From Candidatus Yonathbacteria bacterium (GTDB lineage Bacteria > Patescibacteriota > Minisyncoccia > Phycocordibacterales > JACNGX01): 64,000 nt of DNA. Below are positions 2,398 through 49,685 of the stretch, piece after piece. The notes under the pieces were generated by a model that ran no database searches, was not told the DNA's origin, and saw nothing but the letters and a program-made list of their open reading frames with translations. Position numbers and translations under genes: made by a program. Each line of letters opens with the position of its first letter. The stretch's first letter is position 1. The stretch covers positions 37,167 to 101,166 of the forward strand of contig JAAXWR010000003.1 of assembly GCA_013334825.1 (NCBI GenBank). The letters run 5' to 3'.

Positions 2398-2402
2398 CAA
2401 GA

Positions 2403-30814: not shown

Positions 30815-31059
30815 AATGTGGAAAAGTTATGTTTATAATATATAGATATATATTATTACTATTATATACGTGTATAAGTGGATAACACAAATATGTTACG
30901 TAATACCAATACTATTTCATCAACAGGAGTGTAAATGAGTCTACACAAATTATACATACATTACTACGTGTATAAAGAAAATAATTGGTATACACATATT
31001 CTTAACATCTTTTATATACCATTATCCTTTATTATTTCACATAATATCCACAGAGTTTT
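30815..31059. promoter_or_regulatory. AT-rich dnaA-dnaN intergenic region with DnaA-box-like sites (candidate oriC part / DUE)
   Basis: agtggataa 30867-30875 (reverse-complement TTATCCACT, 8/9); atatccaca 31044-31052 (8/9); long AT tracts (tatagatatatattattactattatatacg). Confidence 0.55.
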
Positions 31060-32403: not shown

Positions 32404-32648
32404 AATGAAGATGAGGATTGATTTGATTGATAATCGTTACGAACGTGCATGTAATTATATACGGGTGGATAGGAAGTGGAAACTTGCGAACATGGGAAAA
32501 GTCTGTTGATAAGGTGTGGATAAATAATTATATGAATAAAAACTCGAGAAACATATACATATAAACATATAAATGATAAATAACACATAAATCCTTTCGT
32601 ATTGGAATATGTTGCTTTTTTCATACTATGGTGTATAGTAATGCAACT
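32404..32648. promoter_or_regulatory. dnaA upstream region with DnaA boxes (candidate oriC part)
   Basis: Perfect TGTGGATAA (reverse-complement TTATCCACA) at 32515-32523; ggtggatag at 32464-32472 (reverse-complement CTATCCACC, 7/9); tgttgataa at 32504-32512 (reverse-complement TTATCAACA, 8/9). Confidence 0.6.
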
Positions 32649-32783
32649 ATGTCGCAAACATATAAACCAAGCAAAAGAAAGCGTGCGACCACACATGGTT
32701 TTCTTGTTCGTTCTGAAACACCTTCAGGACGCGCAATCCTTAAAAACCGCCGCCGTAAAGGGCGCGCAAAGCTTTCCGTGTAA
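32649..32783 (+). CDS. rpmH: 50S ribosomal protein L34
   Basis: 44-aa [47 protein letters not shown] found by manual translation (below ORF-track cutoff); canonical position divergent from dnaA. Confidence 0.9.
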
Positions 32784-32848
32784 TATATAAATAAAAAAAC
32801 AAATAACACAACCTTTTCAAGGTTGTGTTATTTGTTTATGATGGAGGA

Positions 32849-33196
32849 ATGCTTTCCAAACATCTCAGACTTACCAGTCATGATATTCCCCTACCACAAA
32901 AAGGATTACAGGTATTTCATACTGAACGACTTACACTTGCAATATCTCCTTGTCATGATAAAAAACCATCGAAATTTGCTGTTCTTGTCTCAAAAAAAGG
33001 GAAAAATGCTCCTACACGCAATAAGATGCGACGTCGTATATATGAAGCAATTGGAATGTTTAGGGGTCGTATAAAACAAGGATATAGATGTATATTCTCT
33101 CTCAAAAAAGGTATTTCTTCTGATATTCCCTATCACATTATCTTCGCGGACGTTACTATTCTTCTCAAACAAGCGGGATTACTATGTCTTTCTTAA
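32849..33196 (+). CDS. rnpA: ribonuclease P protein component
   Basis: FAVLVSKKGKNAPTRNKMRRRIYEA (RNR motif); synteny rpmH-rnpA-yidD-yidC; start uncertain (32825 or 32849). Confidence 0.8.
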   Translation: MLSKHLRLTSHDIPLPQKGLQVFHTERLTLAISPCHDKKPSKFAVLVSKKGKNAPTRNKMRRRIYEAIGMFRGRIKQGYRCIFSLKKGISSDIPYHIIFADVTILLKQAGLLCLS

Positions 33197-34738: not shown

Positions 34739-34763
34739 TATATATCTGGAATATGTTGGATTA

Positions 34764-34787
34764 AAAAACACCCAGAAGGGTGTTTTT
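34764..34787. terminator. bidirectional terminator between jag and the minus-strand cluster
   Basis: AAAAACACCC-agaa-GGGTGTTTTT flanked by A- and T-runs. Confidence 0.7.
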
Positions 34788-34807
34788 TAATGTGTTTTGT
34801 CTCAGTA

Positions 34808-36091
34808 TCAAAAATCAAGTTCAAGAATCCAAGGGGTCATATCGTTTTTATTCATGAAAATCAAACGATGTTCCTCGGTGTCGATTTCTGGGTTTATAAT
34901 ATCTAATGAAGGAAGTCCATAGTCGGACGGAGAAGCCAGAAAAAGTAATTCTCCTGTATTCTCATTCATATACCAAATATTATCTTCAAACGACACTGTC
35001 CCCTTGTACCATGCGTCAGGATATGAAGCAGAAGGGATATAGGAAGGAACTCCGCAATATATTCCAGTATCTGTATCATTCCACGAACATTTTTCGGGGA
35101 GTGTACTGAGAGGAAGTGATGTAATGCCGTCGTCTTTTAGGAGACTGAGTGTCAGTGATGACCTTGACCCTGATCCGATAAGTCCAAGGTTCTTTTTCGA
35201 TGACATATGAAGCGTCATACCAGGAATACCGCCAGCTAGTTTTGTAAGTGAGCTACCTGTGTTTGCATCAAGCGTATAGGCGTATCCAGGAACTCCCGCC
35301 GAAGGTTTTGTGGTGAGATAGACTGTGTCGCTTTTTGTCCATTCTGAAATCCATTCAGATAACGGTGACGAGAGAAGTTGTTTTGCTGATTCATCTGTAA
35401 ATGAGAAACGATCGTGGGAACTACCAGCGCTCTTGTCTGAAACAGTAAATATACGTGTTCCTTCGGGTGAAACAGAAAGAGAAGTTACATTTGTCTTGCT
35501 GAAGCGTTCTTTTAAGGAGCCGATACTTTCATCAATGTCTGTCCCTGTGACATCTTCCCCGCCGAGGATGATATCGAATGCTGTAGTAGTTACTGTTGAT
35601 CCGTTTTCAGCAATTGATCGAGAAATGACATGGGTGCCATCTTGTGAGAAGAATGATTCTTGGGTTTCCGCATATGTTGTGTTGGTGATTCGTGTTGCTT
35701 TATTGGATGCGACGGAAATATCGTATATGTTACCTGTGGAACGTTCCATGATGCGAACAAATAACTCACGTGTCTTATTTCCACTTTCATCCGTTGTTTC
35801 TTTTGAAAGAAGTTTCATACCAGAAATCGGGTATGGATACAATTGTCGAAGTGCAGGAAGAGTTCCAGGAGGGATAGTAGAGTTTTCTTCATTCGAAGTT
35901 GTTTCTTGTGTATCATCTAATCCAAAGAGATCACCCAGTATCCCCCCATCATCGCCAAAAAGAGATGAAAATGAAGATGGAAAGACACTTCCTGTAGTTG
36001 TACTTTTTGATACAACAAAAAATACAATGCCCAATATGAGTATAATAACGAGTACAAGAGCGGTGATGATAATGAGTGTTTGTTTTTTCAT
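34808..36091 (-). CDS. membrane-anchored hypothetical protein (last gene of the T4SS-like cluster), possible beta-propeller
   Basis: N-terminal TM LIIITALVLVIILILGIVFFVV; beta-rich Ser/Thr/Gly composition; no catalytic motif seen. Confidence 0.5.
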   Translation of the reverse strand: MKKQTLIIITALVLVIILILGIVFFVVSKSTTTGSVFPSSFSSLFGDDGGILGDLFGLDDTQETTSNEENSTIPPGTLPALRQLYPYPISGMKLLSKETTDESGNKTRELFVRIMERSTGNIYDISVASNKATRITNTTYAETQESFFSQDGTHVISRSIAENGSTVTTTAFDIILGGEDVTGTDIDESIGSLKERFSKTNVTSLSVSPEGTRIFTVSDKSAGSSHDRFSFTDESAKQLLSSPLSEWISEWTKSDTVYLTTKPSAGVPGYAYTLDANTGSSLTKLAGGIPGMTLHMSSKKNLGLIGSGSRSSLTLSLLKDDGITSLPLSTLPEKCSWNDTDTGIYCGVPSYIPSASYPDAWYKGTVSFEDNIWYMNENTGELLFLASPSDYGLPSLDIINPEIDTEEHRLIFMNKNDMTPWILELDF

Positions 36092-36129
36092 GAAAGAAAA
36101 AAGTATACCAATAATTTAATGTGTGTACA

Positions 36130-37182
36130 TTATTTGAACCATGAAGAAGACTCTGTATTTCCAAATATCACGGAAAGTGATGTTTTGGCGTCTTGAAGAA
36201 GTTTTGATGGGTTTGTGGTCGCAAGTGACACTGTTGCTTTTCCTGATGTCCCTTCGGGAACACCAAATATAATCATATGGGGATTATTCCAATCAGAAGA
36301 TATGGATGACCCATTCATAGACCATGCAAACCCAAGATTGTGCGGGGTACCTGTTTTTGTCGAGAAATAATATGGTTCAGCAATCAAAGAGAGCTCGTTT
36401 GATAGTAGCGTGACTGTGTCGATAAGTGCTCTCCCATACCATGGACCTTGGAGGGGTCGTTGTTCATAGAAAAGTATCTCAGGGTCTGTTTGGGGGATAG
36501 AAACTGTTGCGCCGGCTCCGAGAGACCCGTCGCGTGAGGATATTTCTACACCAACACTTTCCGTAGATAGGAGAACATTTTTCATAAGAGAAAGAGTTTG
36601 CTTTCCGTATCCTGATTGTGAAGTAACGTCACGCTTAAACCCATTAAGTGTCCATGTATAGACAAGATTTTCTGGAGCAACAGTTTTTCCTGATGAACCA
36701 ACAATGTTGGGGATTGCAACAACATGCACCAAAGCGCTCGATGCAGGGAGTGCTTTACCTTTGTAGAGTGGTGGTGTATAAGAATCAGTTGCTTCCCAAA
36801 TCAAATCGACACCTCCGGGGACGAAACTTATCGTCTTTTGAATCGTCTCTCCGTTTGCAGAAATAACCGCACGGATAGAGGTCGTCTTCCCTGCTTGTCC
36901 CGCAGGTAGGGAGAGGCTGGTCATGCCAATACCCGACGCTCGTTGCGATCCGTTAACATACCAAAGAATAGATGCCCCAGGAAGGTCGACACTATAACTA
37001 CTTAAAGTGATGGACACTTGTTCACCAACTGATGGGTATGCGGGAGATACACGAATTGACACAAATGATTCGAGTGCATGTGTTGTGTGAGGAAAAAATG
37101 ATACACACAAAAAGACAATGGTCAAAAGTGTGTGTATGACGGTGTCACGCACCAATATAGTATGTGTGCGGAATGATAGCAT
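36130..37182 (-). CDS. membrane-anchored hypothetical protein (T4SS-like cluster)
   Basis: N-terminal TM (HTLLTIVFLCVSFF), beta-rich extracytoplasmic part; a role as a VirB8-like scaffold is only a guess. Confidence 0.45.
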   Translation of the reverse strand: MLSFRTHTILVRDTVIHTLLTIVFLCVSFFPHTTHALESFVSIRVSPAYPSVGEQVSITLSSYSVDLPGASILWYVNGSQRASGIGMTSLSLPAGQAGKTTSIRAVISANGETIQKTISFVPGGVDLIWEATDSYTPPLYKGKALPASSALVHVVAIPNIVGSSGKTVAPENLVYTWTLNGFKRDVTSQSGYGKQTLSLMKNVLLSTESVGVEISSRDGSLGAGATVSIPQTDPEILFYEQRPLQGPWYGRALIDTVTLLSNELSLIAEPYYFSTKTGTPHNLGFAWSMNGSSISSDWNNPHMIIFGVPEGTSGKATVSLATTNPSKLLQDAKTSLSVIFGNTESSSWFK

Positions 37183-37202
37183 GTAATCTAGTATATCACG
37201 TA

Positions 37203-39065
37203 TTATGTGATATTTGCGATACCTGCGATGTTTATACCTCCATGATTCTTCTCTTCTTCTGCCAATTCTTTCTTCGCCTCACGTATTTGAAGCACTTGAG
37301 AGGGGTCTGAAGTGATAATTTGTTCTTCGGTGTATGAGGCAAGGATTTTGATTGCGACGTGTTTTAAACCTGCAAAAAAGATGCCCTCCCCTACGTCTGA
37401 TTCAAGAAGGAGATACTTCTCCTCATCGGTGAGATTAAATGTCTTTTGAACCATATCGATAGACGTGGGAGACTGCTTCAAAAGCATTTGAATGGCAGAG
37501 TTGGTGATAATAGGAAGCCCGTACGGGGAACGAAGGAAATCTGAGACGTCTTGTGTGATGGTGGATACACCAAGAAAATACTTACGACCACGTTTTGTCA
37601 TGCCAAAAAGGAATGATGCGGTGTCTTCCGACTTCATCATCCACCAGGCCTCATCAATAACAAGGAGACGTTTTTTTAAATCTTTACGCACTGCATTCCA
37701 AATATAATGGGTAACGATATGCATTGCTACCGTTTTTAGTTCGTCTTCCATGTCACGAACAGAAAAAACGATAAACTTTTTGTTGATGTTTACATTCGTA
37801 GGACGGTTGATGAATTCAGACCATGTGCCACGTGTGAATTTTGAAAGACGGTTTACCAGTGATTCACTCCCCTCCATTCCCGAAAGGACCATTTCAAAGT
37901 CAGATAAAAGTGGTGGAACTGCTCGAGATAAGTCCGACTCAGCCGTAATATCCTTGAGAGCGTATGTTTCAGTGATAGCGCGATCAATAAGCGAGTCTTC
38001 TTCGGGAGAGAGTCCGCTTAACATAATGCGAAAAAGTCCAACCAATGCAATGGTGTTTGTACGAAGAACATCCGCAGTTGTCTCCCCTTCCGCGGGAAGA
38101 GGAAGGTCAAAAGGGTTGATATGATGAGGAGATGTGAGAGAAATGTTGAAATAACGTCCTCCTGCTGCCTCGGCCATAAATTCGTATTCGCGTTCTGGGT
38201 CGATGACGATAACGTCTGTATCAAACATGAGTGTGCGAAGAATTTCAAGTTTTGTTGCAAATGATTTTCCTGCTCCTGACGTCGCAAACGTGACCGAATT
38301 ATAATTTTCCATTGAGAAACGGTCGAACAATACTAAACTGTAATTATGTCGATTGATACCATATAAAATACCGCGATCAGAAGTGAGATTGAACGAAATA
38401 AAGGGAAATACACTCGACAGAGGTGATGAGTTGAGTTTTGAATGAACACCAAGAAGGTCTGTGGAAGCAGGGATGACACTTTTGAAGCCTTCTTCTTGGC
38501 GGAAGAGGGCAGGTTTGAGATAGATGAGTTTTGACTCGAGCATTGATTTTATCTCCGACTCAACTCGATCAAGTTCTTCCATTGTATTCCCGTAAATAGT
38601 GATATAAAGCCCCACATCAAAAAGGCGCTCCTGTGCTTGTTGAAGCTGGTCACGGAGCACTTCTAGGTTTGAATATGCCGCAGCAAGTTTAGGGTCTCGA
38701 ACCATTCCTTTCTCTTCACGCATAGAAATTTGACTTTCTACTTCGGCGACCTTTTTTTGGAACTTCCTTAAAATATCGGCAGTATCAACGGGGTGAATGT
38801 AAATCGATACATCAAATACAGCATCAAGGTTGATGATGGGAGAAAACCAACTATCTGCTAAGTAGCGTGGATAAGAAATAACAAAAAACGTGCGCGCAAT
38901 GCGATCACCCAAGTTGAGTTCGCGAGGAGTGATTTTGAGTGCAGAGGGCGCAATAACATCTTTAAGTTCAAGGACGGCGGATGCATAAATTTCCTCCGGG
39001 AGAATAGGAGTAATTTCTGGAAGGGGGTCTTGTTTTTTGAGGCCAAGTGTTTCAAGAATCGACAT
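37203..39065 (-). CDS. VirB4/TrbE-family type IV secretion ATPase, C-terminal 620-aa part (ATPase domain)
   Basis: Walker A ATSGAGKSF; Walker B LLVIDEAWWMM; RKYFLGVSTITQDVSDFL motif. Middle-region pattern ...APSALKITPREL...RTFFVISYPRY... typical of Gram-positive VirB4. Confidence 0.8.
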   Translation of the reverse strand: MSILETLGLKKQDPLPEITPILPEEIYASAVLELKDVIAPSALKITPRELNLGDRIARTFFVISYPRYLADSWFSPIINLDAVFDVSIYIHPVDTADILRKFQKKVAEVESQISMREEKGMVRDPKLAAAYSNLEVLRDQLQQAQERLFDVGLYITIYGNTMEELDRVESEIKSMLESKLIYLKPALFRQEEGFKSVIPASTDLLGVHSKLNSSPLSSVFPFISFNLTSDRGILYGINRHNYSLVLFDRFSMENYNSVTFATSGAGKSFATKLEILRTLMFDTDVIVIDPEREYEFMAEAAGGRYFNISLTSPHHINPFDLPLPAEGETTADVLRTNTIALVGLFRIMLSGLSPEEDSLIDRAITETYALKDITAESDLSRAVPPLLSDFEMVLSGMEGSESLVNRLSKFTRGTWSEFINRPTNVNINKKFIVFSVRDMEDELKTVAMHIVTHYIWNAVRKDLKKRLLVIDEAWWMMKSEDTASFLFGMTKRGRKYFLGVSTITQDVSDFLRSPYGLPIITNSAIQMLLKQSPTSIDMVQKTFNLTDEEKYLLLESDVGEGIFFAGLKHVAIKILASYTEEQIITSDPSQVLQIREAKKELAEEEKNHGGINIAGIANIT

Positions 39066-39092
39066 AGTATGTATAGTGTATCACAAAGAGGA

Positions 39093-39722
39093 TTAAACCT
39101 TGATAGGTTTATCTTGTTCACCGGGGTTAAACATGCGGTAAAAGAGTTCCACAAGCTCTTCGGTGCCGAGAGGTGTTGTGCGAACGCCTGCACGCACAAG
39201 CCCTTGTTGTACGATGTACATACGCTGCTCGAGCTGAGAACGATTTACAGAAAAAGCATCCCCATCCTTTGTTGTTGTCGCTGAAGATGTTTTCCCAAAT
39301 AAAGAAGAAAAAGGGCCTGTTTTTGTCTCAATAATAGAAGGTGTATAAGGGACAACAATAAAGAAATTTTTTGTCATGATATTTGTTTGTTCAGTAAATG
39401 TTTTGATGAATTGTATATATTCGCGAATTTGTATTTTTGCGAGATCGTTTGTCTGCTCACGCTCTCGACTTTCAAGAAGCGCAATGTAGGGGCGAACATC
39501 ATAGCGACGGGATTGAGTGTATATTTGAAGAGAAAAATCTAATGAATTGAGAAAGTTTTGGAATTGGACCAAGACAGACTGTTGTTCATCGGGTGATTTG
39601 AGCGACATATTGATAGATGACGCCATAAGAACCATTTTGAGAGAACCGTCTTCCATCACGGCAATGCCGTCACGGATTTCTTTGATAGGAACGAATTGTT
39701 GTGAGGGTTGGGGTTTAGGCAT
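39093..39722 (-). CDS. VirB4 N-terminal domain encoded as a separate 209-aa ORF
   Basis: FVPIKEIRDGIAVMEDGSLKMVLMASSINMSLKSPDEQQSVLVQFQNFLNSLDFSLQIYTQSRR matches the CagE/TrbE/VirB4 N-terminal domain pattern. It lies 27 nt upstream of the ATPase ORF, in a different frame; 209 + 620 aa is close to a full-length VirB4. Confidence 0.65.
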   Translation of the reverse strand: MPKPQPSQQFVPIKEIRDGIAVMEDGSLKMVLMASSINMSLKSPDEQQSVLVQFQNFLNSLDFSLQIYTQSRRYDVRPYIALLESREREQTNDLAKIQIREYIQFIKTFTEQTNIMTKNFFIVVPYTPSIIETKTGPFSSLFGKTSSATTTKDGDAFSVNRSQLEQRMYIVQQGLVRAGVRTTPLGTEELVELFYRMFNPGEQDKPIKV

Positions 39723-39740
39723 AAGGGTTGTTAGGTAGGA

Positions 39741-40157
39741 TCAACGAATGTTTTTTTGTATATCGAGACTCCATGCCATGTCTTTGAGTTTACTTTGAGA
39801 CAGTGTGGGAACATGAACAGTGGGGAGTGAAGCACTGGATGTGGGGACGATTTCCTTTTTTGGTGTTGTTGGTTTCTTCCACTCTTGCTTCCAAATGTAG
39901 AGCTTGCTACCGAGCGCGTAGTTGAATGCGGCTTCTAACACTTCAATAAAAGGACGGTCATTGATACGGAGAAAGGCAAGAGCAACAGAGAGTCCTCCAA
40001 GAGGAAGAATGAGAAGTGCGGCAAAGAAAAACGGTAATGAACGATAGAGAACAAAAGAAATTCCTGCTCCCCCAGCGAGATAGAGGAATTGTTTAAACGT
40101 GAGAGGTCCAAAGATTTTGTCTTCGACCTCAATAAATTGGGGAGTTTGAAATTGCAT
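39741..40157 (-). CDS. PrgI-family (VirB3-like) small membrane protein
   Basis: MQFQTPQFIEVEDKIFGPLTFKQFLYLAGGAGISFVLY plus two TM helices, as in PrgI/TcpE-like VirB3 analogues of Gram-positive T4SS. Confidence 0.6.
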   Translation of the reverse strand: MQFQTPQFIEVEDKIFGPLTFKQFLYLAGGAGISFVLYRSLPFFFAALLILPLGGLSVALAFLRINDRPFIEVLEAAFNYALGSKLYIWKQEWKKPTTPKKEIVPTSSASLPTVHVPTLSQSKLKDMAWSLDIQKNIR

Positions 40158-40175
40158 GAGAGTCTTATGCGTTTA

Positions 40176-40937
40176 CTACGAGGTGAACGATTCACGATAC
40201 GGGTCATTTGTTGGCTTAGGAGGAAAGACAGGGCGCTCTTTTTCTGTTTGTTGTGTGGGAGGAATACTTACCGTGTGAGAAAGTTTTTGTTCCAAGATAG
40301 ACGGAAGTGTGGTGGGAGTAATGGCGACGTCTGTTTCTGGAGGGATCATAGGGAGATCAGAAGTGGTATCTTCCCCGGGTTTCAAAACAGAAGGAGGAAG
40401 GGAAACCCCTTCTTCTGATGTGGCAGAAGGTGTCTCGTGTATAACATGAACGGGTACGGGATCTTCATTTTTTATGGGAGACGCCGACGTGGACATGATT
40501 TGTTGTGTTTTACTCGGTTGTTCAATCTCTTTCAAAAGTTCTTCTCGTGAAGGCATGTTTATTTCTTCATCATCTGCTTGTTCTTTAGTGTAACGAGACT
40601 CAGACTCAGTATGGTGTATTTGTTCGAGTGACGTACGAACAGGGTTAAATATCTCACGATTGATATCCTCAATAATAAGACGTGCGTGTTCCTCTGTAAT
40701 ACCAAGTGTATCCATGAGTGTTTGCGCGTAGCCCGCACGTGGTTCAAGCCCGAGCATCACAAGTGTTGTGCGGATGCTGAGTTCCCCTATTTGATCGAGA
40801 TGAAGACTATTACGCTGTCCGATACGTTCAAGAGCATGCCCAATATCGGCAGATGCAAGGACTGCCTTAATGTCGTTGGGCATCGCTTCGAAGCGTGCCG
40901 AGAGTTCTTCTTCAGTGTATGTACGTTTTGGTATCAT
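40176..40937 (-). CDS. hypothetical protein (T4SS-like cluster), disordered Pro/Thr/Ser-rich C-terminal half
   Basis: ORF continuity and operon context only. Confidence 0.45.
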   Translation of the reverse strand: MIPKRTYTEEELSARFEAMPNDIKAVLASADIGHALERIGQRNSLHLDQIGELSIRTTLVMLGLEPRAGYAQTLMDTLGITEEHARLIIEDINREIFNPVRTSLEQIHHTESESRYTKEQADDEEINMPSREELLKEIEQPSKTQQIMSTSASPIKNEDPVPVHVIHETPSATSEEGVSLPPSVLKPGEDTTSDLPMIPPETDVAITPTTLPSILEQKLSHTVSIPPTQQTEKERPVFPPKPTNDPYRESFTS

Positions 40938-40975
40938 GATAGTGTTAAAGTGTGAATGTGAGGGTGTCTATGTAA

Positions 40976-43315
40976 TTATTTTTTTGTTCCTCCATCTCCA
41001 CTAGAGGGTTGAGGTGTGTTATCTGAACGATTTTTTTGCCCGTGAAGCCTATCTCCTAAAGAGCGTAGTTCTTTAGAAATTTGTTTTTGGGAAAGATATT
41101 CTTGAAGTTCTTTGTTTGTTGTGTTGAATTGAATTTGACGAAGATTATTGTTCGGCTCTTTTTTCAATTGTTCTCCTACTATCTTAATTTGGGCATTCAA
41201 TTCGTTAATATGTTCGTCGAGATGTTTTTCATACCCTGCCAAAGCCTCAATACGCTTTTCTGTTTCTTTTTGTGTTTCCAGTTTTCCAGTTACGAGAGGG
41301 TCTTCAACAGAGATGCCCGTATGTTCTTTCATTTTTGTGTAGAATTCTCCACTCTTGTTTTTGTAGGTAACTTCATTTTCTCTTTGACGAATATCTTTTT
41401 TAGTGTCTTCGATTATTTTCTTTTCGGATTTTTCAATTTGTTCCATTGCTTTTTGAGCGGCTCTTGCTCTTCCAGTATTAGTGGCAGATCCTCCGAATCC
41501 TTTTGCTATAGTATCACGAGTTTCGGATGCAATTTGTTTTTCATAAGAAGCAAGATTCTTCGCAGCATCTTCTTTTGAGAGGGTTACTCCTGCTGGTGCA
41601 GGATTGCCAGAAGCGATGCGTTTCAATGTATCATGATACATTGAGCCGGCTTGAATTGCGTTATTGACATACCAAGAGCCAGTTTTTTTGTCTTGTTGTT
41701 CAACAAAACGTTCGAGTGCAGCTTTTGCCGCAGCAGCTTTTGCGGGGTCCTTGTCATCGACCTTACCTAGTTTAGTAGTAAGAGAATTGAAATATTTTTC
41801 TTTTCGGTCTACCTTTCCTCCAAATCCACCTTCACCTTGTTTGACGCCCCATGCTGCCAAGCCTTTATTCATGCCTGCTTTTCCACCTGCTTTTGTGCGA
41901 CGGATATCGAAACTTGATCCCTGTGCTCCTTCCAGTCCACGGAGAGCCATACGCTGTACTACGTTACCAGATGCAAGCCGTTGGCTTCTTGTCATACCAT
42001 CAGTCCCTACAGTATTGAGTGAGCGCATGGCGCCTCCGCCAACAATGTTTCTCAATGCTGCGCCACCAATTCCTCCCAGAGCGAGTCCACCTGCTATACC
42101 AGCCGCACCTGCGAGTTTCTTGCCAATATCAAGTGAGATACCACCAATGGAGTCGCATTGTTTCTTGGTGAGGTTTTTACCATATTGAAGAATGGTGAGA
42201 ATGACGCCAAATTTGAGCGCGAGGACGACGATGAATTCCATGAAGTTGAGTCCTTCTCCCCCAGCGCTAAGGAAAAGATCTCCAGAGTTCGCAGGATTGG
42301 CAAACAGTATAGCAAGCCAGACAAAGAACATAAAAATCGTAATACAAAATGATTTTCCGATCAATTCCTTCCAAAGAGTTTTTGCATGTGTCTGGAGTGG
42401 GCCAGGGAGAAATGATCCCGCGACCATAATAGGAGACATTGCCATGATAATCCAAAGAATTGCAATACGAGAGAGAAAGAGAAATGCAGTTGTGAAAAAT
42501 ATCCATGCGGCAAAAAGAAGCATAGCAGTGGAGGCGACATAAAGAAAGATGAGTTTCCATGCATTGGTATCTGTATCTGCGTCCAGTCTAGTATCTTTAA
42601 GTATTTTTTGTGGCTCCATGACGCTGACTATCGCAGATGAGACTCCTTTTATCTCCGTGCTTGTATTTGCAAGCTTTGTTGCTGTGCGAACATCTTCAGA
42701 AAGGTTCTCTTGATCGTTGACCTTTATTGCGTCATAGAAAAAGAGTGCGGTGATATTCCCCGCATCAATAATGGCGCGTGAAATAAATAAACTGAAGTTG
42801 ATAAGAAGCGCCGCGATGATGATTTTGTGAAGGGTGCTTTTTGCAGTATGTTTGCCAATGTCAAGAATGGTCGCAATTGCCACATATATCAAAATAAAGA
42901 TAAAAAGGATATTCGTAAGGTCGCGTATACCAACCCATGCAAGACGTACAAAATCGGCGTCCATAATGTTCTTATCAAGTCCAAACGCCATTAAAATATC
43001 AAAAATCATTCCCGTAGCGGTGAGCACATATCCAGAGACTGTCATAATTGCAAATGCTCCTGCTCCTATACAACCAGGAACGAGGTGCCACATATCGCAT
43101 GTAAATGGGGTGGCATTATTTTGTTGTGCTTGTATTGATTCTTCAGCAGCACTCTCTTCTGTACCACTTGGCGTAACTGCGTGTGGATTTACTGTTCCTG
43201 CTGCATATACATCAGTAGGATATAGGTTGAATAAAGATATTACAGTAAACAAAAAAGCCACAACGAAAACAGGTAACCTCTTGGAGAAAGAAGATGCTGT
43301 AAAACAATAAGACAC
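40976..43315 (-). CDS. VirB6/TrbL-like polytopic membrane protein with C-terminal Gly-rich/coiled-coil hydrophilic domain (779 aa)
   Basis: Signal/TM, then at least 6 TM helices (aa about 80-420); GGISLDIGKKLAGAAGIAGGLALGGIGGAAL; long charged coiled-coil tail. Size and topology resemble Tn916 Orf15/TcpH-type VirB6 analogues. Apparent GTG start preceded by TGTTATACT. Confidence 0.55.
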   Translation of the reverse strand: MSYCFTASSFSKRLPVFVVAFLFTVISLFNLYPTDVYAAGTVNPHAVTPSGTEESAAEESIQAQQNNATPFTCDMWHLVPGCIGAGAFAIMTVSGYVLTATGMIFDILMAFGLDKNIMDADFVRLAWVGIRDLTNILFIFILIYVAIATILDIGKHTAKSTLHKIIIAALLINFSLFISRAIIDAGNITALFFYDAIKVNDQENLSEDVRTATKLANTSTEIKGVSSAIVSVMEPQKILKDTRLDADTDTNAWKLIFLYVASTAMLLFAAWIFFTTAFLFLSRIAILWIIMAMSPIMVAGSFLPGPLQTHAKTLWKELIGKSFCITIFMFFVWLAILFANPANSGDLFLSAGGEGLNFMEFIVVLALKFGVILTILQYGKNLTKKQCDSIGGISLDIGKKLAGAAGIAGGLALGGIGGAALRNIVGGGAMRSLNTVGTDGMTRSQRLASGNVVQRMALRGLEGAQGSSFDIRRTKAGGKAGMNKGLAAWGVKQGEGGFGGKVDRKEKYFNSLTTKLGKVDDKDPAKAAAAKAALERFVEQQDKKTGSWYVNNAIQAGSMYHDTLKRIASGNPAPAGVTLSKEDAAKNLASYEKQIASETRDTIAKGFGGSATNTGRARAAQKAMEQIEKSEKKIIEDTKKDIRQRENEVTYKNKSGEFYTKMKEHTGISVEDPLVTGKLETQKETEKRIEALAGYEKHLDEHINELNAQIKIVGEQLKKEPNNNLRQIQFNTTNKELQEYLSQKQISKELRSLGDRLHGQKNRSDNTPQPSSGDGGTKK

Positions 43316-43399
43316 GAATATAGTATAACAAATTATATACCAAAAAAAAACAAGAATAATGTGTAGAGCTTGGTAGAAAAATCGCGAGTATTTTTAGAG

Positions 43400-43440
43400 C
43401 GCATATCAAAAAGCAAAAACCGCGGGTTTCCCCGCGGTTG
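43400..43440 (-). terminator. intrinsic terminator of the lipoprotein gene
   Basis: Minus strand: AACCGCGGGGAAACCCGCGGTT followed by TTTTGCTTTTT. Confidence 0.7.
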
Positions 43441-43890
43441 TTAGTAATATTTTTCCCGCAACTCCCCTCTCATAAAGTATCCGTGGACTACCACGGCATA
43501 CCTTACGTTTGCATAGGAAAAATGTTCGTCCGCCGCCACTGCGCGGACAATCTTTTCTGCAGACTCTTCTTCCTCAGGGGTACTTACGTACCCAATTTTT
43601 TTGAGGTGATCCATCGCGTAGGCGACATCTTCCTCGTAGAGGAAGATGTCCCTACTTGCGTAGGAGAAAATAGAACGTATGCGCTCTATTTCTTTTGAAA
43701 GTATCTCCTGCTCCTCAAAAGGGAGCTGGAGAAGCCTCTTTTTTGCAGCGGAAAATTCTTCCGGGGTTGTTTCCCCCGAAATCTTTACTGCTCTCTCAAT
43801 ATAGTCCGGGGCACTCGCCTCCGGAACTAATACACTTTTCCCGCATCCTACAAGAAGAGCGAGGAAGAAAAAATAAATGAGTTTTTTCAT
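43441..43890 (-). CDS. lipoprotein, hypothetical
   Basis: Signal peptide with lipobox LLVGC (MKKLIYFFFLALLVGCGKS). Confidence 0.6.
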   Translation of the reverse strand: MKKLIYFFFLALLVGCGKSVLVPEASAPDYIERAVKISGETTPEEFSAAKKRLLQLPFEEQEILSKEIERIRSIFSYASRDIFLYEEDVAYAMDHLKKIGYVSTPEEEESAEKIVRAVAADEHFSYANVRYAVVVHGYFMRGELREKYY

Positions 43891-44147
43891 CTTTATTCCT
43901 TTCCGTCTTAGAGACGGACATTTATTAAAAAGTTTATTTAATTGTAGGGGTAACTGCTACCCTATATGATAACCGATATATATTTTTTTGTCAATACCCT
44001 CTCCTGTGTAGAACTGTATATCTGATAAAAGAACCTAATCCTTGCACTCTATGCACGGACTAGGTTCTTTTTGACGTTTTTAGGAATTATCGGGAGACAC
44101 CTCCCCAAAATGAAGAGGAGGGATAAGTTTGAAGAATCCCCTTGTGA

Positions 44148-45692
44148 TTAAAGTGTGCCTCCTTGCAAACGTGCCATAAGGGCATCTACTGCAGCAGCAA
44201 TCTCTGTAACACGGTTGGAGTCCTTTGTTATTGCTGTTTCGGTGTCAAACACTTTTGTGCGTGTGTATACGTCAATTGGTTCAACTGTGGTGTTATAGCT
44301 CTTATAAATGGCAATAACCTCTTTGAGTGTATTTGCTTGTTCCGCACGTTCAAGCATTGTTTCCAAAGAAGAGACATAATTGTTGGGTGCATTTACTGCC
44401 TGTATGAGTGTAGTATATCCCGACATCCTATTCCCTAGGGTGACGAGCTCAGAACGATACGAGAGAAGGAGTTCACGATTGGCAAGTATTTCGTCTTGGA
44501 GTATACCAAAGTTTCCTTGGGACAAAAGCGTATCGATATCTGTAATCGTTTCTGTTATGCGTGAAGATGATACGGTAACATTGTTTTCAATTGTATCGAG
44601 ATGTGTCGCGTCCGTGATTTCCTCTTCGAGAATATCAATAAGTCGATCGTCGGTTGAAATCGTTTCCGAAACACTTCCTGATGACGAATCAGTGGTACCA
44701 TCGGAGCTTCCTGTAATTGCAGTAATTCCCTGTGTGAGAAGGCTACTCACGAGATTATTGATGAGAGTAGCAAGCATTTCTTCGATTTCATCAGCATTTT
44801 CAAGACTACGAAGCGGGCTCCCCAATGCTTCTGAGAGAGTGTTCGCAATAAATTGTCCGGGTGTAACACGTTCCCACTTAATACAAGTTGCTCCTGTTCC
44901 CGCTGCTGCATTGCCACTATAGTCAAATGAATCGATACTGACAGAGTCTTGTGTCTTGGTGGCAATATCGTAGGTGCCTGCGTATTCAAGACATTTTCCC
45001 GGAAGTGAGAGAAGCCCACCACTTTGATCAAGTTCATCTTTGACGTTCGATACTGCAGTATTTACACGAGTGGAATGCTCTTCGGCAGCCATGTATGATT
45101 GTCCGTAGATATTGTTCTGAGGTTCAAGGAGCGCCATAAATCCAGTCCATCCTCCCTGTTTAAAATCTTCCATGAATGCTTCTGGATTGACAAGAACGTC
45201 TCCAATCGTGCTTCGCGCACGTTCAGAGTAGGGGGTGTATGACTGTGCAAGTTGCTTAAGAAGTTGGCGTTTGATAGGTTCATAAATGTCGGCCTCAGAG
45301 ACTTCACCCATAAAAGCGGTCGTTGCATCACGAGAAAGTTTTGCAAAAAATGCATCAGGGTCGGTCACAATGAGAGGGTCTCCAAAGAATCCTTGATTAA
45401 CAAAGTTTTGCAGATCCATGATAATGTCACCAACGAGCATCTTGGCAATTGTCCAAGCGATAGAGTCGAGTCCCATTTCTTTGGGAAGAATAGTGAGATC
45501 GCGAGTGATATCTCGTGTGACAATGACAGGGTCTCCTACACCGCCTCCGAGAAGCCCTGCGATATTTCCTAATCCAAAGAGAGCGTGTGCTTTTCGTGGT
45601 GCACCGAGTATACCAATAGAAATGGTGGCGAGAAGAAGAAATGCAAGGATTGTTTTTTGTCCTGTTGATGTGTGCGAATGGTGTGAAGTCAT
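44148..45692 (-). CDS. secreted/membrane-anchored hypothetical protein with coiled-coil C-terminal region
   Basis: N-terminal TM/signal ILAFLLLATISIGILGA; no recognised catalytic motif. Confidence 0.5.
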   Translation of the reverse strand: MTSHHSHTSTGQKTILAFLLLATISIGILGAPRKAHALFGLGNIAGLLGGGVGDPVIVTRDITRDLTILPKEMGLDSIAWTIAKMLVGDIIMDLQNFVNQGFFGDPLIVTDPDAFFAKLSRDATTAFMGEVSEADIYEPIKRQLLKQLAQSYTPYSERARSTIGDVLVNPEAFMEDFKQGGWTGFMALLEPQNNIYGQSYMAAEEHSTRVNTAVSNVKDELDQSGGLLSLPGKCLEYAGTYDIATKTQDSVSIDSFDYSGNAAAGTGATCIKWERVTPGQFIANTLSEALGSPLRSLENADEIEEMLATLINNLVSSLLTQGITAITGSSDGTTDSSSGSVSETISTDDRLIDILEEEITDATHLDTIENNVTVSSSRITETITDIDTLLSQGNFGILQDEILANRELLLSYRSELVTLGNRMSGYTTLIQAVNAPNNYVSSLETMLERAEQANTLKEVIAIYKSYNTTVEPIDVYTRTKVFDTETAITKDSNRVTEIAAAVDALMARLQGGTL

Positions 45693-45711
45693 AGAAATAT
45701 GTATACGCGGG

Positions 45712-46710
45712 TTAACGGCTCATAAAGATATACCCTCCTTCTCCAGGAGAAAATGATACATCAGATGTCGCGCAAGCATCAGCGAATGTTGCTGTTGATC
45801 GAGTAATACGTTCGAGCGCAGTACGATATTCAGAGATGCCAATGACGCCAGTTAATGTGTCGTGTTCAGTATCGCGAATCATAACAAGTGCACGCTTCAT
45901 ATTGTTTACACCATTGACGAGTTCGAGATGGGCATCTTTCAGGTTTTCAGGGACACGCGTTGACAAGAGTGTGTTACGCATACCTTCAAAAAATACAATA
46001 AATCTATCGAGACGTGCTAATCCAGCAATGTTTGTACCATTGCCATCAATGATTGATTCTTTAATGATGGTCATTTCGTAAGGTTCTCCCAATGCTTCAT
46101 ATGCCGACAGTTGTGTGCCAAAGATATTGCCATATGCACGAAGAGTTTCAACATCTGCTGGTCCGACAGCAATATCGACACGTGTATAGGCATCTACGAG
46201 TTTATTGTTTCCTGCTTCGTTGGCAATAATGTCATTGAGGACATCTGCTTTTCCAGAAATATCGTCTCCAGACATACCGTACGCGTACAAGTGACTCATG
46301 AATGCCTGAGCAACTGACTCGGTACGATTTCCATATCCAGTCTCTGTGCTTTCAAGTGATGGGATTGCTGGATATATAGAAAGCGAATCATCTACTGCAT
46401 TAATGAGAGGGTTGCGCTGCGTGAGGAGCTCAATAGAATCGGGAGTACCGTCTCCGTCACTGTCGACTTGTTCAGGGTTTGTACCCCACAGGGCCTCTTC
46501 CCAGTTTGAGAGTCCGTCATCATCATAGTCGGCATTTGGATCGTAATCTGTTGGGACATATGCCGAAGCAAGAGGGAGTGTTTTTTCAGGCACATTCCCA
46601 AGGCGAGTGATGCCGTACGCAATTCCTATAAAGATAATAATAACACCGACAATCGCGATAAAGCGTTTACTCGGGAGGTATGAAGAGATGGGCTGATGCA
46701 TATGCATCAA
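45712..46710 (-). CDS. membrane-anchored hypothetical protein with thrombospondin-type-3-like Ca-binding motif
   Basis: TM FIAIVGVIIIFIGIAYGI; DYDDDGLSNWEEALWGTNPEQVDSDGDGTPDSIE. Confidence 0.5.
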   Translation of the reverse strand: MMHMHQPISSYLPSKRFIAIVGVIIIFIGIAYGITRLGNVPEKTLPLASAYVPTDYDPNADYDDDGLSNWEEALWGTNPEQVDSDGDGTPDSIELLTQRNPLINAVDDSLSIYPAIPSLESTETGYGNRTESVAQAFMSHLYAYGMSGDDISGKADVLNDIIANEAGNNKLVDAYTRVDIAVGPADVETLRAYGNIFGTQLSAYEALGEPYEMTIIKESIIDGNGTNIAGLARLDRFIVFFEGMRNTLLSTRVPENLKDAHLELVNGVNNMKRALVMIRDTEHDTLTGVIGISEYRTALERITRSTATFADACATSDVSFSPGEGGYIFMSR

Positions 46711-46761: not shown

Positions 46762-48351
46762 TTATGTGGTGTTTCGATAGATGGTATAGGCATTTCCAAT
46801 CAGGAGAATTGTTGCACATAGTAATATCCAGTTTTGCGCATAGTCGGCGACAGTACGTTCTTTTTTCAAAGAAATATTTCCTGAAATGAAACCTGTTTCA
46901 CCGCGAAGAGAAGATGTAACAATGTGTCCATTTCCATCAATAATAAAAGAAGGTGTCATGTTCCCCGCCTGTATGAACGGACGTGCATGTGTTACCGCAT
47001 GAATGATTGCTTTTCGTAGAACATATTTCCCCAGAAGAGGATGTCCAGTAAATGCCCCATGTGACGCCGCGTTTGCAAAGACGGTGGTGCCGTTATCGGA
47101 TGCTTCTGTATAAAGTGACATAGGTGTCGTTTCGGAGCAGAACAGTACAGTTAATGAAAATAATCCTTTCGATGAGATACTTTCAATCGCTGTTCCATGG
47201 GTATATCCACGCCGTGTTGTAAACGTATCAGCCCAGTGCCCTTGCCCGAAGATTTTTGAAAAAGTTGTAACAATATAAGGAAGATATTCGCCAAACGGTG
47301 CAAGAAAACGTTTTTGACCTTGCCCCACAAGTGTTCCTGTTGCGTCTATGTATTGCGCGGTGAGTATGAGAGAGCCATCTTCTGTACGATTTGTCTCTGA
47401 ATCGGTGGCAAGAAATGATGAAGATTGTGCGAGAGGATCAAGAATTTGACGGCGTGCGTCAAGTGAAAGCGAGCCGAGAAGGCCAGTGTCTTCAGGAAGA
47501 ATAAGTATATTAGTTCGTATACCAGAAGTTATTGCAGTATCGATATATTGTTTCGCGCGTGTTTGTTTGCGAGCATGGTCTATCTTTGTCGCACCAAATA
47601 CGGAAGGTTCGTTCAGAGAGATTGCGGTTGCAGAGATGGATTCCGCTGTGTCATGTGGGTGGAGGATGTGCCCGATGCTTGGGGTGATAAAAAGAAAAAG
47701 AATGAGTATTCCTACAGATTGTGCCATTGTGCCAAGATGTCTCTTGGGATATGCCGAGATAAGATGTGTTATTGCTACAGCACTTCCTGCGATGATAAAT
47801 TCAAAAAGATATGGTCCCCCAAGTGAAGTAATAGAGACGAGAAAGCTACTGTCAGCAAAAGATGTACCTAGATTTCCGAAATCCCAGTAAGGTCCGATTG
47901 ACGCTCCCTTTCCCCACCAAAGGACAGCATATGCAAATGAACGTACAAAAGAAAGTAGTGTCCATGCGGATGCCCCATACAAGACGTCTTTAATGAGTGT
48001 GTGGTGGGGTGAGCGCATGAACAGCGTCCAGATGCCCGTAAAGATACCAATGGTTAGAGAAGAAAATATCCATGCTGTTCCAACGACGATTCCAGCAAGG
48101 AGAGGAGATGTAAACCCTGCCCAACTAAGTGGGTACGCACCCCAAAACCAGAATGTCGAAATACCTCCCGCCATAACACCAGACAAAAACCCTCCTTGGT
48201 ATGCCATGCGACGTGTGCGATGTATGTTTCGTGCATATAAAACAAGTGGTACGAGTACACACGGTGCCATGACATATCCGTAGGGAGCGGCAATCGCGAT
48301 AATAGCAAATATCCCTGAATATAAAGGGAGAAGTGAAAAAGAAAAACGCAT
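46762..48351 (-). CDS. apolipoprotein N-acyltransferase-like protein (polytopic N-domain plus CN-hydrolase-like domain)
   Basis: 6-7 N-terminal TM helices, then a nitrilase-fold-like domain (ILILPEDTG, LFCSETT with candidate catalytic Cys); an Lnt assignment is tentative. Confidence 0.45.
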   Translation of the reverse strand: MRFSFSLLPLYSGIFAIIAIAAPYGYVMAPCVLVPLVLYARNIHRTRRMAYQGGFLSGVMAGGISTFWFWGAYPLSWAGFTSPLLAGIVVGTAWIFSSLTIGIFTGIWTLFMRSPHHTLIKDVLYGASAWTLLSFVRSFAYAVLWWGKGASIGPYWDFGNLGTSFADSSFLVSITSLGGPYLFEFIIAGSAVAITHLISAYPKRHLGTMAQSVGILILFLFITPSIGHILHPHDTAESISATAISLNEPSVFGATKIDHARKQTRAKQYIDTAITSGIRTNILILPEDTGLLGSLSLDARRQILDPLAQSSSFLATDSETNRTEDGSLILTAQYIDATGTLVGQGQKRFLAPFGEYLPYIVTTFSKIFGQGHWADTFTTRRGYTHGTAIESISSKGLFSLTVLFCSETTPMSLYTEASDNGTTVFANAASHGAFTGHPLLGKYVLRKAIIHAVTHARPFIQAGNMTPSFIIDGNGHIVTSSLRGETGFISGNISLKKERTVADYAQNWILLCATILLIGNAYTIYRNTT

Positions 48352-48371
48352 GAGAATAGTGTGAAAGACAA

Positions 48372-48854
48372 TCACCAACTCGCGATGTCTCCTATAGAGA
48401 GATTGTGTGAAGAAGAGAAACCGGCGGGAACTTCAAGAGCATAGCGCGCATTTGTTTGTGGGCTAAAACTCTCAGGGTATGTTTCTGGAGAAACAGTGTA
48501 TGCAATATCTACAATTTGTTTTTTTGCTGAAAACCAAATAATATCAATAGGATATGTCATGTCTTTCATCCAAAATGAATGATGATCATCTTTTGGGAAA
48601 ACGAATAGCATGCCTTCTTGTGGAGAAAGAGTGTTTGTCCCCGATAGTCCCTGACGGCGTTTTTCTTCAGTATCAGCAACATGAGCGGTGACGATAGTTC
48701 CGTTAATGGCAACGAGTGTGCGTTCGTATCCAGAAAGTGATACAGACGCGGAAAATTCGGCCGGGTAGGCATCTGCTTGGGACGATATAACTATGGTTGA
48801 TGCTGCAATTGAGGCAACAATAATCAAAATGAATGTGCCGATGGATGTGCGCAT
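48372..48854 (-). CDS. DUF192-family secreted protein
   Basis: Signal/TM, then GLSGTNTLSPQEGMLFVFPKDDHHSFWMKDMTYPIDIIWFSAKKQIVDI...ARYALEVPAGF, the DUF192 consensus. Confidence 0.6.
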   Translation of the reverse strand: MRTSIGTFILIIVASIAASTIVISSQADAYPAEFSASVSLSGYERTLVAINGTIVTAHVADTEEKRRQGLSGTNTLSPQEGMLFVFPKDDHHSFWMKDMTYPIDIIWFSAKKQIVDIAYTVSPETYPESFSPQTNARYALEVPAGFSSSHNLSIGDIASW

Positions 48855-49609
48855 AGTGCATGCCAGTCGGCGACGGAAAGATTTTCCGCACGCGCCGTCT
48901 TCTCTATGGTACACGCTTGAAGGGTGTCTTGTCCACATCCGAGATTTGATGCAAGAAGTTTACGCTTATGTGCGAATCCTTTTCTCACTGTCTCAAAGTA
49001 CACGCGTTCGTTCTCGTTAGATGTAAACGGATCAGACATATGTTCGACGACAAGGACAGCAGAATCAACAGTGGGTGATGGAGTGAACATGCCACGAGGA
49101 ATGGTACGCGCGATATGTGGTGTTCCATATGTTTGAATGGCAATAGAAAGAATACTTGCATCCCCTTTTCCCGCGACTGCTCGGCGAGCAACTTCTTTTT
49201 GTACAAGGAGTACTACATGTTTAGGAAGATGTGCGCGCGAGAAAAATCGACGAATGATGAGGCCTGTGATGTAATACGGAATATTTGCGGCGAGGATGTA
49301 GGTGCCGGGGTTAAGATTGTAGGTAGCAAGGTCAAGAGTGAGCGCGTCACCATGAACGAGCGTAAGACGTCCTGATGCAATATCGTCCACAAAGAGCGTC
49401 TGGAGCTCTGGAATAAGACGGTCGTCTTTTTCAACAGCGACAACGTGCGCGCCGGTATCAAGGAGGGCGCGCGTGAGCGCGCCCATACCAGGCCCGATTT
49501 CAAGGATGGTGTCCCCTATTCCCGCGCATGTTGCGGCAGCAATATCAGCAATCGCTTTCTCCGAAGTGAGAAAGTTTTGCCCAAGAGATTTTTTTGCTTT
49601 GATAGTCAT
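48824..49609 (-). CDS. rsmA: 16S rRNA (adenine1518/1519-N6)-dimethyltransferase
   Basis: KSLGQNFL motif, SAM-binding ILEIGPGMGALT. Start at MTIKAKK (49609); the ORF track extends to 49825. Confidence 0.85.
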   Translation of the reverse strand: MTIKAKKSLGQNFLTSEKAIADIAAATCAGIGDTILEIGPGMGALTRALLDTGAHVVAVEKDDRLIPELQTLFVDDIASGRLTLVHGDALTLDLATYNLNPGTYILAANIPYYITGLIIRRFFSRAHLPKHVVLLVQKEVARRAVAGKGDASILSIAIQTYGTPHIARTIPRGMFTPSPTVDSAVLVVEHMSDPFTSNENERVYFETVRKGFAHKRKLLASNLGCGQDTLQACTIEKTARAENLSVADWHALCAHPSAHSF

Positions 49610-49685
49610 GATAATGATGAGGAAGAAATAAATATATTGCAACACATTTTTTCTCAAAAAAAGAGGACTGTCCTTTCGGAAAAAG

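Follow-up and report, generated by a model that had tools for sequence, protein, structure and literature searches.

Gene content and boundaries of the locus

We analyzed a 64,000-nt stretch of DNA from Candidatus Yonathbacteria (Patescibacteria, Paceibacteria), referred to below as the window, which lies on a contig measuring 389 kb or more. Between positions 34808 and 46710 lie ten co-oriented minus-strand open reading frames (ORFs) of at least 120 amino acids (aa), including genes for a VirB4-family ATPase in two parts and for membrane proteins resembling its partners in type IV secretion systems (T4SSs), and this cluster is the subject of the present analysis. A first-pass annotation of the window had listed eleven co-oriented minus-strand genes; the strand and the shared orientation were as described, and the number was corrected to ten, and gene calling on two further, independent assemblies in which this locus is identical gave these ten genes again.

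Seven of the genes form a core running from 43315 down to 34808 with spacers of 18 to 38 nt, and upstream of this core are the genes for two proteins of 332 aa and 514 aa (p332 and p514) and for a 149-aa lipoprotein. The terminators that had been placed at both ends of the core were found again as hairpin-plus-T-run sites, and the three upstream genes noted at first pass are present. One is a strong intrinsic-terminator-like hairpin on the minus strand (43439 to 43418; 9 bp, 7 of them G-C, with a T run), which separates the lipoprotein gene from the seven-gene core operon that follows it. The other is a 14-bp hairpin (34760 to 34791) between the convergent jag and p427 genes, which is likely a bidirectional terminator that closes the operon. 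With these defined operon boundaries, the ten-gene locus is a clean and complete Paceibacteria example of its kind.

For comparison, the cluster proteins were mapped by phmmer onto 84 related loci, of which 80 came from distinct GTDB species (all Patescibacteria metagenome-assembled genomes [MAGs]) and four from assemblies.

A VirB4 ATPase encoded by two genes

The gene at 37203 to 39065 (minus strand) encodes a 620-aa protein corresponding to the C-terminal part of a VirB4-family ATPase. It matched the NCBIfam CD1110-family VirB4 model over model positions 184 to 732 of 752 (E value, 1.3e-108; 364 bits against a cutoff of 325) and Pfam P-loop_TraG (3.7e-25), and a search against the PDB returned VirB4 (4ag5; 8.6e-39) and TrwK (2.4e-06). 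PrgJ of Enterococcus faecalis pCF10 matched the same protein at 5.7e-41, and both nucleotide-binding motifs, read from the translation, are intact (Walker A, ATSGAGKS; Walker B, LLVIDE). At least 8000 homologues were found; the 120 matches listed are 75 to 100% identical, and the named VirB4 homologues among the matches listed are all from Patescibacteria, Parcubacteria, or Paceibacterota. Judged by this homologue search and not by a tree, the window VirB4 appears to belong to the Patescibacteria lineage.

Directly upstream of virB4, a gene at 39093 to 39722 (minus strand) encodes a 209-aa TrsD-like protein, the separately encoded VirB4 N-terminal domain. Its NCBIfam matches were to mycoplasma VirB4 (positions 104 to 236; 2.2e-10), TrsD/TraD (8.3e-07), and CD1110 VirB4 (positions 2 to 119; 2.2e-05), and an identical protein carries a precomputed Pfam match to the TraC-like family PF26593. 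The first-pass annotation had described the ATPase as split into N- and C-terminal parts, and this description is borne out by two genes that both have VirB4 profile matches. In the window, the two ORFs share a frame and are parted by a TAA stop codon plus 27 nt. Because the TrsD-like gene is separate in all 84 related loci and the two genes lie in different frames in relatives, the split is ancestral and reflects neither a pseudogene nor readthrough. Readthrough of the in-frame junction was accordingly rejected on the evidence of the relatives, and a Mycoplasma-type UGA recoding was also rejected, because the codon at the junction is TAA and because TGA serves as a stop codon in this Patescibacterium. 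The TrsD-like protein also gave a single weak PHROG match, to phage terminase large subunits (4.6e-05), which was disregarded; it probably reflects the N-terminal region shared among ASCE ATPases and not a phage origin.

PrgI- and VirB6-like membrane partners

Two genes upstream of virB4 lies a gene (39741 to 40157, minus strand) for a 138-aa small membrane protein with two membrane helices and with hydrophobic segments at residues 33 to 63. As proposed at first pass, it is a PrgI/VirB3-like protein, matching Pfam PrgI (PF12666; 6.8e-08) at 33.4 bits, above the family cutoff of 27 bits, and a homologue is present in 80 of the 84 loci.

The first gene of the core (40976 to 43315, minus strand) encodes a 779-aa polytopic membrane protein, hereafter VirB6L, which has a signal or anchor, approximately six to seven membrane helices within residues 80 to 390, and a long, Gly-rich, coiled-coil hydrophilic tail. 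With this tail, VirB6L resembles the "extended VirB6" proteins described in a 2025 review (PMC12857230). The protein itself had no match in Pfam, NCBIfam, or the PDB sequences, and its family profile found only coiled-coil noise in the PDB sequences. The link to VirB6 is therefore drawn from its homologues, from profile alignment, and from a fold search. A Pfam TrbL/VirB6 match was obtained for 10 of 51 homologues (best, 4e-07), and hhalign of the VirB6L family against pCF10 PrgH gave a probability of 55% (E value, 1.2e-4). An AlphaFold2 (AF2) model of residues 1 to 430 (predicted local distance difference test score [pLDDT], 80.6; predicted template modeling score [pTM], 0.76) was compared with the PDB by Foldseek. 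The top match was chain L of 8rtd, an R388 T4SS entry covering the stalk, arches, and inner-membrane complex (IMC) (probability, 1.00; E value, 0.013), and the third-ranked match was chain J of 7o3v, a TrwJ/VirB5-TrwI/VirB6 stalk entry. These comparisons suggest a probable but remote VirB6-like identity. The VirB6/TrbL-like polytopic protein of the first-pass annotation thus stands as a remote assignment, lacking a direct profile match.

Accessory proteins and an inserted lipoprotein gene

The remaining products include five conserved accessory proteins, searches of which against NCBIfam, PHROGs, and plasmids (tblastn) gave nothing useful as a group. The conserved cluster opens with p332 (45712 to 46710, minus strand), which encodes a membrane-anchored or secreted protein with one N-terminal hydrophobic segment (residues 17 to 35), followed by thrombospondin-type-3 (DxDxDG) Ca-binding repeats and then a helical C-terminal region. 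The repeats were detected by Pfam TSP3_bac (0.003) and NCBIfam MtsD/CglD repeat models, and the family profile aligned with the Ca-binding repeat region of 7c7u, a biofilm surface protein (5e-06). The Ca-binding-motif protein anticipated at first pass can thus be identified as p332, a homologue of which occupies the same position in 49 of the 84 loci. The next gene, p514 (44148 to 45692, minus strand), encodes a signal or anchor, an extracytoplasmic domain, and a coiled-coil tail. Its domain, at approximately residues 60 to 340, is conserved, with conserved Cys and the motifs WINxGFxGxP, QGGW, and PQNNPYG, and is common to 3802 representative clusters. A p514 model (pLDDT, 70.7) had no match in the PDB. 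One of 36 p514 homologues gave a DUF4141 match (1.3e-05), which was not used as evidence.

The p253 gene (40176 to 40937, minus strand) lies between the VirB6L and PrgI genes, an arrangement shared by 58 of the 84 loci. Its predicted cytoplasmic product has no hydrophobic segment and no family match in Pfam or NCBIfam; it consists of a conserved N-terminal helical domain of approximately 110 aa and a Pro/Thr/Ser-rich tail, with conservation restricted to the N-terminal ~40%. Directly after virB4, in this locus and in 79 of 84, is p350 (36130 to 37182, minus strand), whose product has an N-terminal signal or anchor and three tandem repeats. Pfam gave only a subthreshold Ig_3 match for p350, its family profile found nothing in the PDB sequences, and profiles made from the individual repeat segments picked up the remaining segments marginally, in roughly half of the family members. 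From these sequence comparisons, p350 may tentatively be described as three weakly related, beta-rich (Ig-like) tandem repeats. The final gene of the operon, p427 (34808 to 36091, minus strand), has homologues in 67 of the 84 loci, and an identical protein is NCBI HGB03_03815 from a Candidatus Yonathbacteria MAG. It has one strong N-terminal hydrophobic segment (residues 6 to 24). Its family profile matched the TolB propeller in the PDB (E values, 0.002 to 0.06) and PD40 repeats were found in 4 of 44 homologues, suggesting that p427 is probably a membrane-anchored TolB-like (PD40) beta-propeller with conserved Cys.

The lipoprotein gene (43441 to 43890, minus strand) differs from the others. 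The first-pass annotation had counted a lipoprotein among the cluster products, and the lipobox (LVGC) can indeed be read from the translation; the gene itself is a nonconserved insert. No homologue was found at an E value of ≤1e-5 in 82 loci from other genomes. A promoter-like site (11/12 match) lies upstream of it at 43994 to 43966. The slot between p514 and VirB6L (43441 to 44147) is variable: the closest relative (locus L001) has an unrelated 174-aa ORF there (4866 to 5390 of that locus), and in most species the slot is empty. The lipoprotein is a lineage-specific insert, and its membership in the secretion system is doubtful. It was also considered as a VirB7 analogue and rejected, since even the closest relative lacks a homologue of it.

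Conserved order and origin-proximal position

The cluster had been placed about 2.4 kb from dnaA/oriC in core-genome surroundings, and both the coordinates (34808 for the cluster end and 32403 for the near end of dnaA) and the housekeeping flanks agree. The dnaA-side flank comprises dnaN (29681 to 30814), dnaA (31060 to 32403), rpmH (32649 to 32783; 44 aa and unannotated), rnpA (32825 to 33196), yidD, yidC, and jag; the other flank comprises an Lnt-like gene, a DUF192 gene, ksgA (48824 to 49825), a transporter gene, a deaminase gene, and uvrD. A comparison of synteny, which the first-pass annotation had recommended, showed that gene order and origin-side position are kept in the 84 Paceibacteria loci. 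The dominant order is ksgA-p332-p514-VirB6L-p253-PrgI-TrsD-VirB4-p350-p427, convergent with jag-yidC-rnpA and followed by dnaA-dnaN, and in all 84 loci the cluster is oriented in the same way with respect to jag-yidC-rnpA and dnaA-dnaN. Across Paceibacteria, nine of the ten genes thus constitute a conserved unit with a fixed place beside the origin, and the lipoprotein gene and the Lnt/DUF192 pair are local insertions. This pair (an apolipoprotein N-acyltransferase N-domain gene and a DUF192 gene; 46762 to 48938) lies between ksgA and the cluster only here and in the closest relative. No Lnt or DUF192 homologue was found in the 46 loci of other species with a detected ksgA, where ksgA is the detected neighbor of the cluster.

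The proteins of the cluster differ greatly in their conservation. Median identity to the relatives was 76% for VirB4, 57% for TrsD, and 53% for PrgI, compared with 55% for DnaA, 45% for DnaN, 44% for KsgA, and 39% for YidC in the same loci, a contrast that is somewhat inflated for VirB4 because the loci were chosen by VirB4 similarity. The corresponding values were 32% for p350, 30% for p427, 27% for VirB6L, 26.5% for p514, and 24% for p332. VirB4 is more conserved than DnaA among Paceibacteria; the motor is under exceptionally strong constraint, and the surface parts diverge fast.

The cumulative G-C minimum fell inside dnaA, with the skew switching near 31944, and plus-strand GC skew at third codon positions (GC3 skew) was positive for all genes to the right of approximately 33 kb, on either strand. 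From this pattern it follows that the T4SS operon and most genes up to 61 kb are lagging-strand genes transcribed head-on to the replication fork. The spacer between dnaA and rpmH (32404 to 32648) contains a perfect DnaA box, TTATCCACA, at 32515 to 32523 and a one-mismatch box at 32504 to 32512, and the spacer between dnaA and dnaN (30815 to 31059) contains DnaA-box matches at 30817, 30877, and 31044. A 19-bp hairpin (32797 to 32837) follows rpmH. A further perfect DnaA-box match (55052 to 55060) is located within an ORF-poor stretch of 1.47 kb between uvrD and a chorismate-mutase/methyltransferase gene (53992 to 55462), in which we found no ORF of at least 90 aa, no Rfam match at the gathering score, and no tRNA. 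On location near the origin, the available part of a published survey (PMC12102498) discusses gene dosage only. The head-on, fork-facing operon and an ATPase that evolves more slowly than DnaA are useful additional observations.

Components searched for at the locus

Searches for further components combined Pfam scans of 30 flanking ORFs, picked by length, with searches of pCF10 PcfC, PcfG, PrgK, PrgL, and PrgD against all window ORFs of at least 40 aa and against 10 kb on either side of the 84 loci. Neither a VirD4/TcpA coupling protein (Pfam; PcfC) nor a relaxase (Pfam; PcfG) was found in the 64-kb window or around the 84 loci, and Pfam detected no integrase or recombinase in the scanned window ORFs. 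Wall hydrolases were likewise absent: no lysozyme, SLT, CHAP, or M23 domain was found in the scanned window ORFs, and PrgK found nothing in the window or the 84 loci. The first-pass annotation had reported all four of these classes as missing within about 10 kb of the core, and their absence can now be extended to the 64-kb window. At the level of sequence searches, no VirB8-like protein was detected by Pfam or NCBIfam in the cluster or by PrgL and PrgD in the window and the 84 loci; p350 or p427 may still be a structural counterpart, but their profiles favor Ig-like repeats and a beta-propeller. There was also no TrbC/VirB2 or T4SS_pilin Pfam match in the cluster plus ten further flanking ORFs (seven of them <131 aa), a search that could miss a divergent pilin.

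Around the cluster, there were no att-like direct repeats, and the repeats seen were short, imperfect chance repeats. The single tRNA in the window (2325 to 2398) is 32 kb from the cluster, and the G+C content of the cluster (0.427) is close to that of its flanks (0.443 to 0.447). Since order and position are conserved, and mobility genes, repeats, an adjacent tRNA, and a G+C anomaly are all lacking, the cluster is a vertically inherited core locus and not an integrative and conjugative element (ICE).

Relation to described T4SSs

The system to which this locus belongs has already been published (2023 and 2025), and the window holds an ordinary member of it. Wang et al. (2023, Cell, PMC10633639) described an origin-proximal, Gram-positive-like T4SS without a recognizable coupling protein or relaxase in Southlakia epibionticum. 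By transposon sequencing (Tn-seq), this T4SS is essential for epibiotic growth, and comEC is dispensable (PMC10633639; PMC12857230). Quinonero-Coronel et al. (2025, Microb Genom, PMC12102498) reported, in their survey of the phylum, a monophyletic Patescibacteria VirB4 clade related to the mating-pair formation class FATA (MPF-FATA), in which TrsD, PrgI/VirB3, VirB6, and VirB2-like proteins are widespread and relaxases are nearly absent, and a Paceibacteria cluster near dnaA, dnaN, rnpA, rpmH, and ksgA. The 2025 review (PMC12857230) lists the Patescibacteria systems as a special class.

The window locus shares with the surveyed clade a VirB4 with an adjacent TrsD, a PrgI/VirB3, and, probably, a VirB6; the lack of a relaxase or coupling protein at the locus; and a chromosomal position beside dnaA, dnaN, rnpA, rpmH, and ksgA. 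A VirB2-like pilin or VirB1 occurs near virB4 in many of the assemblies that the survey covers and was undetected here, and the window locus adds the lipoprotein, Lnt-like, and DUF192 genes; nothing essential differs. The T4SS of Southlakia epibionticum ML1 (SEML1_0006 to SEML1_0019), which belongs to the class Saccharimonadia and is the only member with experimental essentiality, is likewise chromosomal and Gram-positive-type and, going by the low numbers of its locus tags, lies close to the origin. It differs in having an essential VirB2-like pilin array and peptidase/lysozyme genes downstream of virB4, where the window has p350 and p427.

Among the plasmid systems, the order PrgH(VirB6)-PrgI(VirB3)-PrgJ(VirB4) of the MPF-FATA prototype pCF10 parallels the order VirB6L-(p253)-PrgI-TrsD-VirB4 seen here. 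The PrgK hydrolase, VirB8-like PrgL and PrgD, PcfC (VirD4), the PcfG relaxase, and the LPXTG adhesins of pCF10 were undetected at our locus. In addition, pCF10 has a one-piece VirB4 and a VirB6 of 266 aa, whereas here VirB4 is encoded by two genes and VirB6L has 779 aa. The staphylococcal pGO1/pSK41 Trs systems are, according to the survey (PMC12102498), the only MPF-FATA subclass with the VirB4 N-terminal region as a separate TrsD, a feature shared here; in contrast, they serve plasmid-borne conjugation with a relaxase and a coupling protein, and the pGO1 subclass is described there as having no recognizable VirB6. Helicobacter pylori ComB (DNA uptake), Bordetella Ptl (toxin export), and Bartonella Trw (adhesive pili) are VirB4-powered, VirD4-less machines repurposed from conjugation and provide functional precedents for import, export, or adhesion. 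They differ from the present system in being diderm MPF-T machines with VirB7/9/10 outer-membrane cores and VirB2 pilins, and in not being essential to their bacteria.

Proposed function and alternative explanations

Taken as a whole, the locus is very probably best explained as a resident chromosomal Patescibacteria T4SS of MPF-FATA descent that acts as a contact-dependent conduit. The core-genome context, the lack of mobility genes, and the synteny of the 84 loci uphold the first-pass view of a resident, Gram-positive-type T4SS-like apparatus as opposed to a conjugative element. Given that the locus has neither a coupling protein nor a relaxase and that the Southlakia homologue is essential, the apparatus is most likely such a conduit and not a conjugation machine. 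In the mechanism that we propose, the two-polypeptide ATPase (TrsD-like protein plus VirB4) would dock on a membrane translocon of PrgI/VirB3 and the VirB6-like protein and energize it. The proteins p332, p514, p350, and p427 would build the envelope-spanning, host-contact part, standing in for the VirB8, VirB1, and adhesins of Gram-positive plasmid systems. The result would be a conduit, powered by VirB4 and dependent on contact, that connects the epibiont with its host cell.

The role that we favor, at a little less than an even chance, is the uptake of host macromolecules, chiefly nucleic acids, by an organism without nucleotide synthesis. The survey by Quinonero-Coronel et al. (PMC12102498) likewise proposes import of DNA or other macromolecules, and a 2026 preprint on a cultivated relative describes feeding on host RNA together with putative T4SS pili. 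Protein export into or onto the host appears distinctly less probable, and a purely adhesive or pilus-assembly role is improbable.

Several points weigh against this interpretation of the locus. The VirB6 assignment is remote (the fold match has an E value of 0.013, and the protein itself misses every profile), p514 has no recognizable fold, and VirB8-, VirB1-, and VirB2-like parts were undetected, so the envelope-spanning part is proposed from synteny and predicted topology. A VirD4-like protein or relaxase may sit elsewhere in the genome of ~0.4 Mb or more. Essentiality has been demonstrated in Saccharimonadia only, whose cluster differs in its pilin array and in the hydrolases downstream of virB4. 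Finally, the sequence evidence does not bear on the substrate or on the direction of transport.

Another possibility is that the machine is dedicated to protein export or to pilus/adhesin assembly for Sec-exported, host-directed proteins and transports no nucleic acid, as in Bordetella Ptl or Bartonella Trw. We regard this as rather unlikely. In its favor, the locus lacks VirD4, as do Ptl, Brucella VirB, and Trw; of the nine conserved products, five are proteins of the membrane or the extracytoplasmic space, and four of these five carry one N-terminal anchor each; and the surface parts show 24 to 32% identity next to a nearly frozen motor, as expected of host-facing surfaces. Moreover, protein export was suggested as one option by Wang et al. 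(PMC10633639), and tubular structures at the host interface were reported in the cultivated relative (2026 preprint). On the other side, Pfam found no VirB2-like pilin in the window, the surroundings of the cluster show no obvious candidates for effector genes, and export and import look alike at the sequence level.

A functional machine for conjugation or chromosomal DNA transfer, with its coupling protein and relaxase encoded elsewhere and acting in trans, is considerably more improbable. The machinery derives from conjugative MPF-FATA systems, the inspected 64 kb are a portion of the contig of 389 kb or more, and the survey (PMC12102498) counts 5,713 VirD4-like proteins across 2,918 Patescibacteria genomes, with almost all of them lying far from virB4, along with 109 relaxases. 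However, the same survey indicates that relaxases are rare (103 genomes, compared with 2,474 virB4 genes in the dataset) and that the distal VirD4 homologue of Southlakia is nonessential although its T4SS is essential. Furthermore, neither a relaxase nor a coupling protein occurs within 10 kb of the cluster in the 84 loci, and the locus is fixed beside oriC in the core genome and not on a mobile element.

A decaying ICE remnant near the origin that has lost its integrase, relaxase, and coupling protein would fit the two-piece VirB4 and the undetectable VirB8, VirB1, and VirD4, but this explanation has almost no probability left and is effectively already refuted. None of the ten ORFs is disrupted, and their packing is tight; the division of VirB4 between two genes is found throughout the lineage and corresponds to the TrsD layout of pGO1-type plasmids; VirB4 conservation exceeds that of DnaA; order and position are kept in 84 loci; and there is no repeat boundary or compositional anomaly. 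An ICE, intact or as a remnant, was also rejected because no integrase, att repeat, or nearby tRNA was found and because synteny is conserved.

Neighboring surface and pilus genes

Elsewhere in the window, a giant ORF of 2488 aa (2819 to 10285, minus strand) has no Pfam match at an E value of ≤0.001. It lies upstream of an unmatched 290-aa ORF and of a type IV pilin-like, lectin-domain protein (11366 to 12415, minus strand; N_methyl and Laminin_G_3), and the genes from 2819 to 12415 may represent a surface or adhesion locus. A PilB/GspE-family ATPase, a component of type IV pili (T4P), is encoded at 20494 to 22278 (plus strand). These T4P components are encoded 12 to 23 kb away from the T4SS, across the origin from it. 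Epibiotic growth in Saccharibacteria requires both T4P and the T4SS.

Implications

The locus adds no new kind of system, its type having been catalogued across thousands of genomes. Among its small additions to the published picture is the set of five unannotated accessory genes (p332, p514, p253, p350, and p427) that are syntenic across Paceibacteria and form a conserved target list for structural and genetic work. Possibly none of the five proteins resembles a described T4SS part. We tentatively suggest, as a conjecture with well under an even chance, that the TrsD-VirB4/PrgI/VirB6-like motor is coupled to these proteins as an uncharacterized envelope and host-contact module that replaces VirB8, VirB1, the pilus, and adhesins and is adapted to extract host macromolecules. 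If so, the hyperconservation of VirB4 and the head-on, origin-adjacent placement of the operon would reflect an essential, tightly regulated feeding organelle. No T4SS other than that of Patescibacteria is known to be essential to the bacterium that carries it, and the Patescibacteria T4SS is probably the basis on which a very large bacterial radiation lives as host-dependent epibionts.

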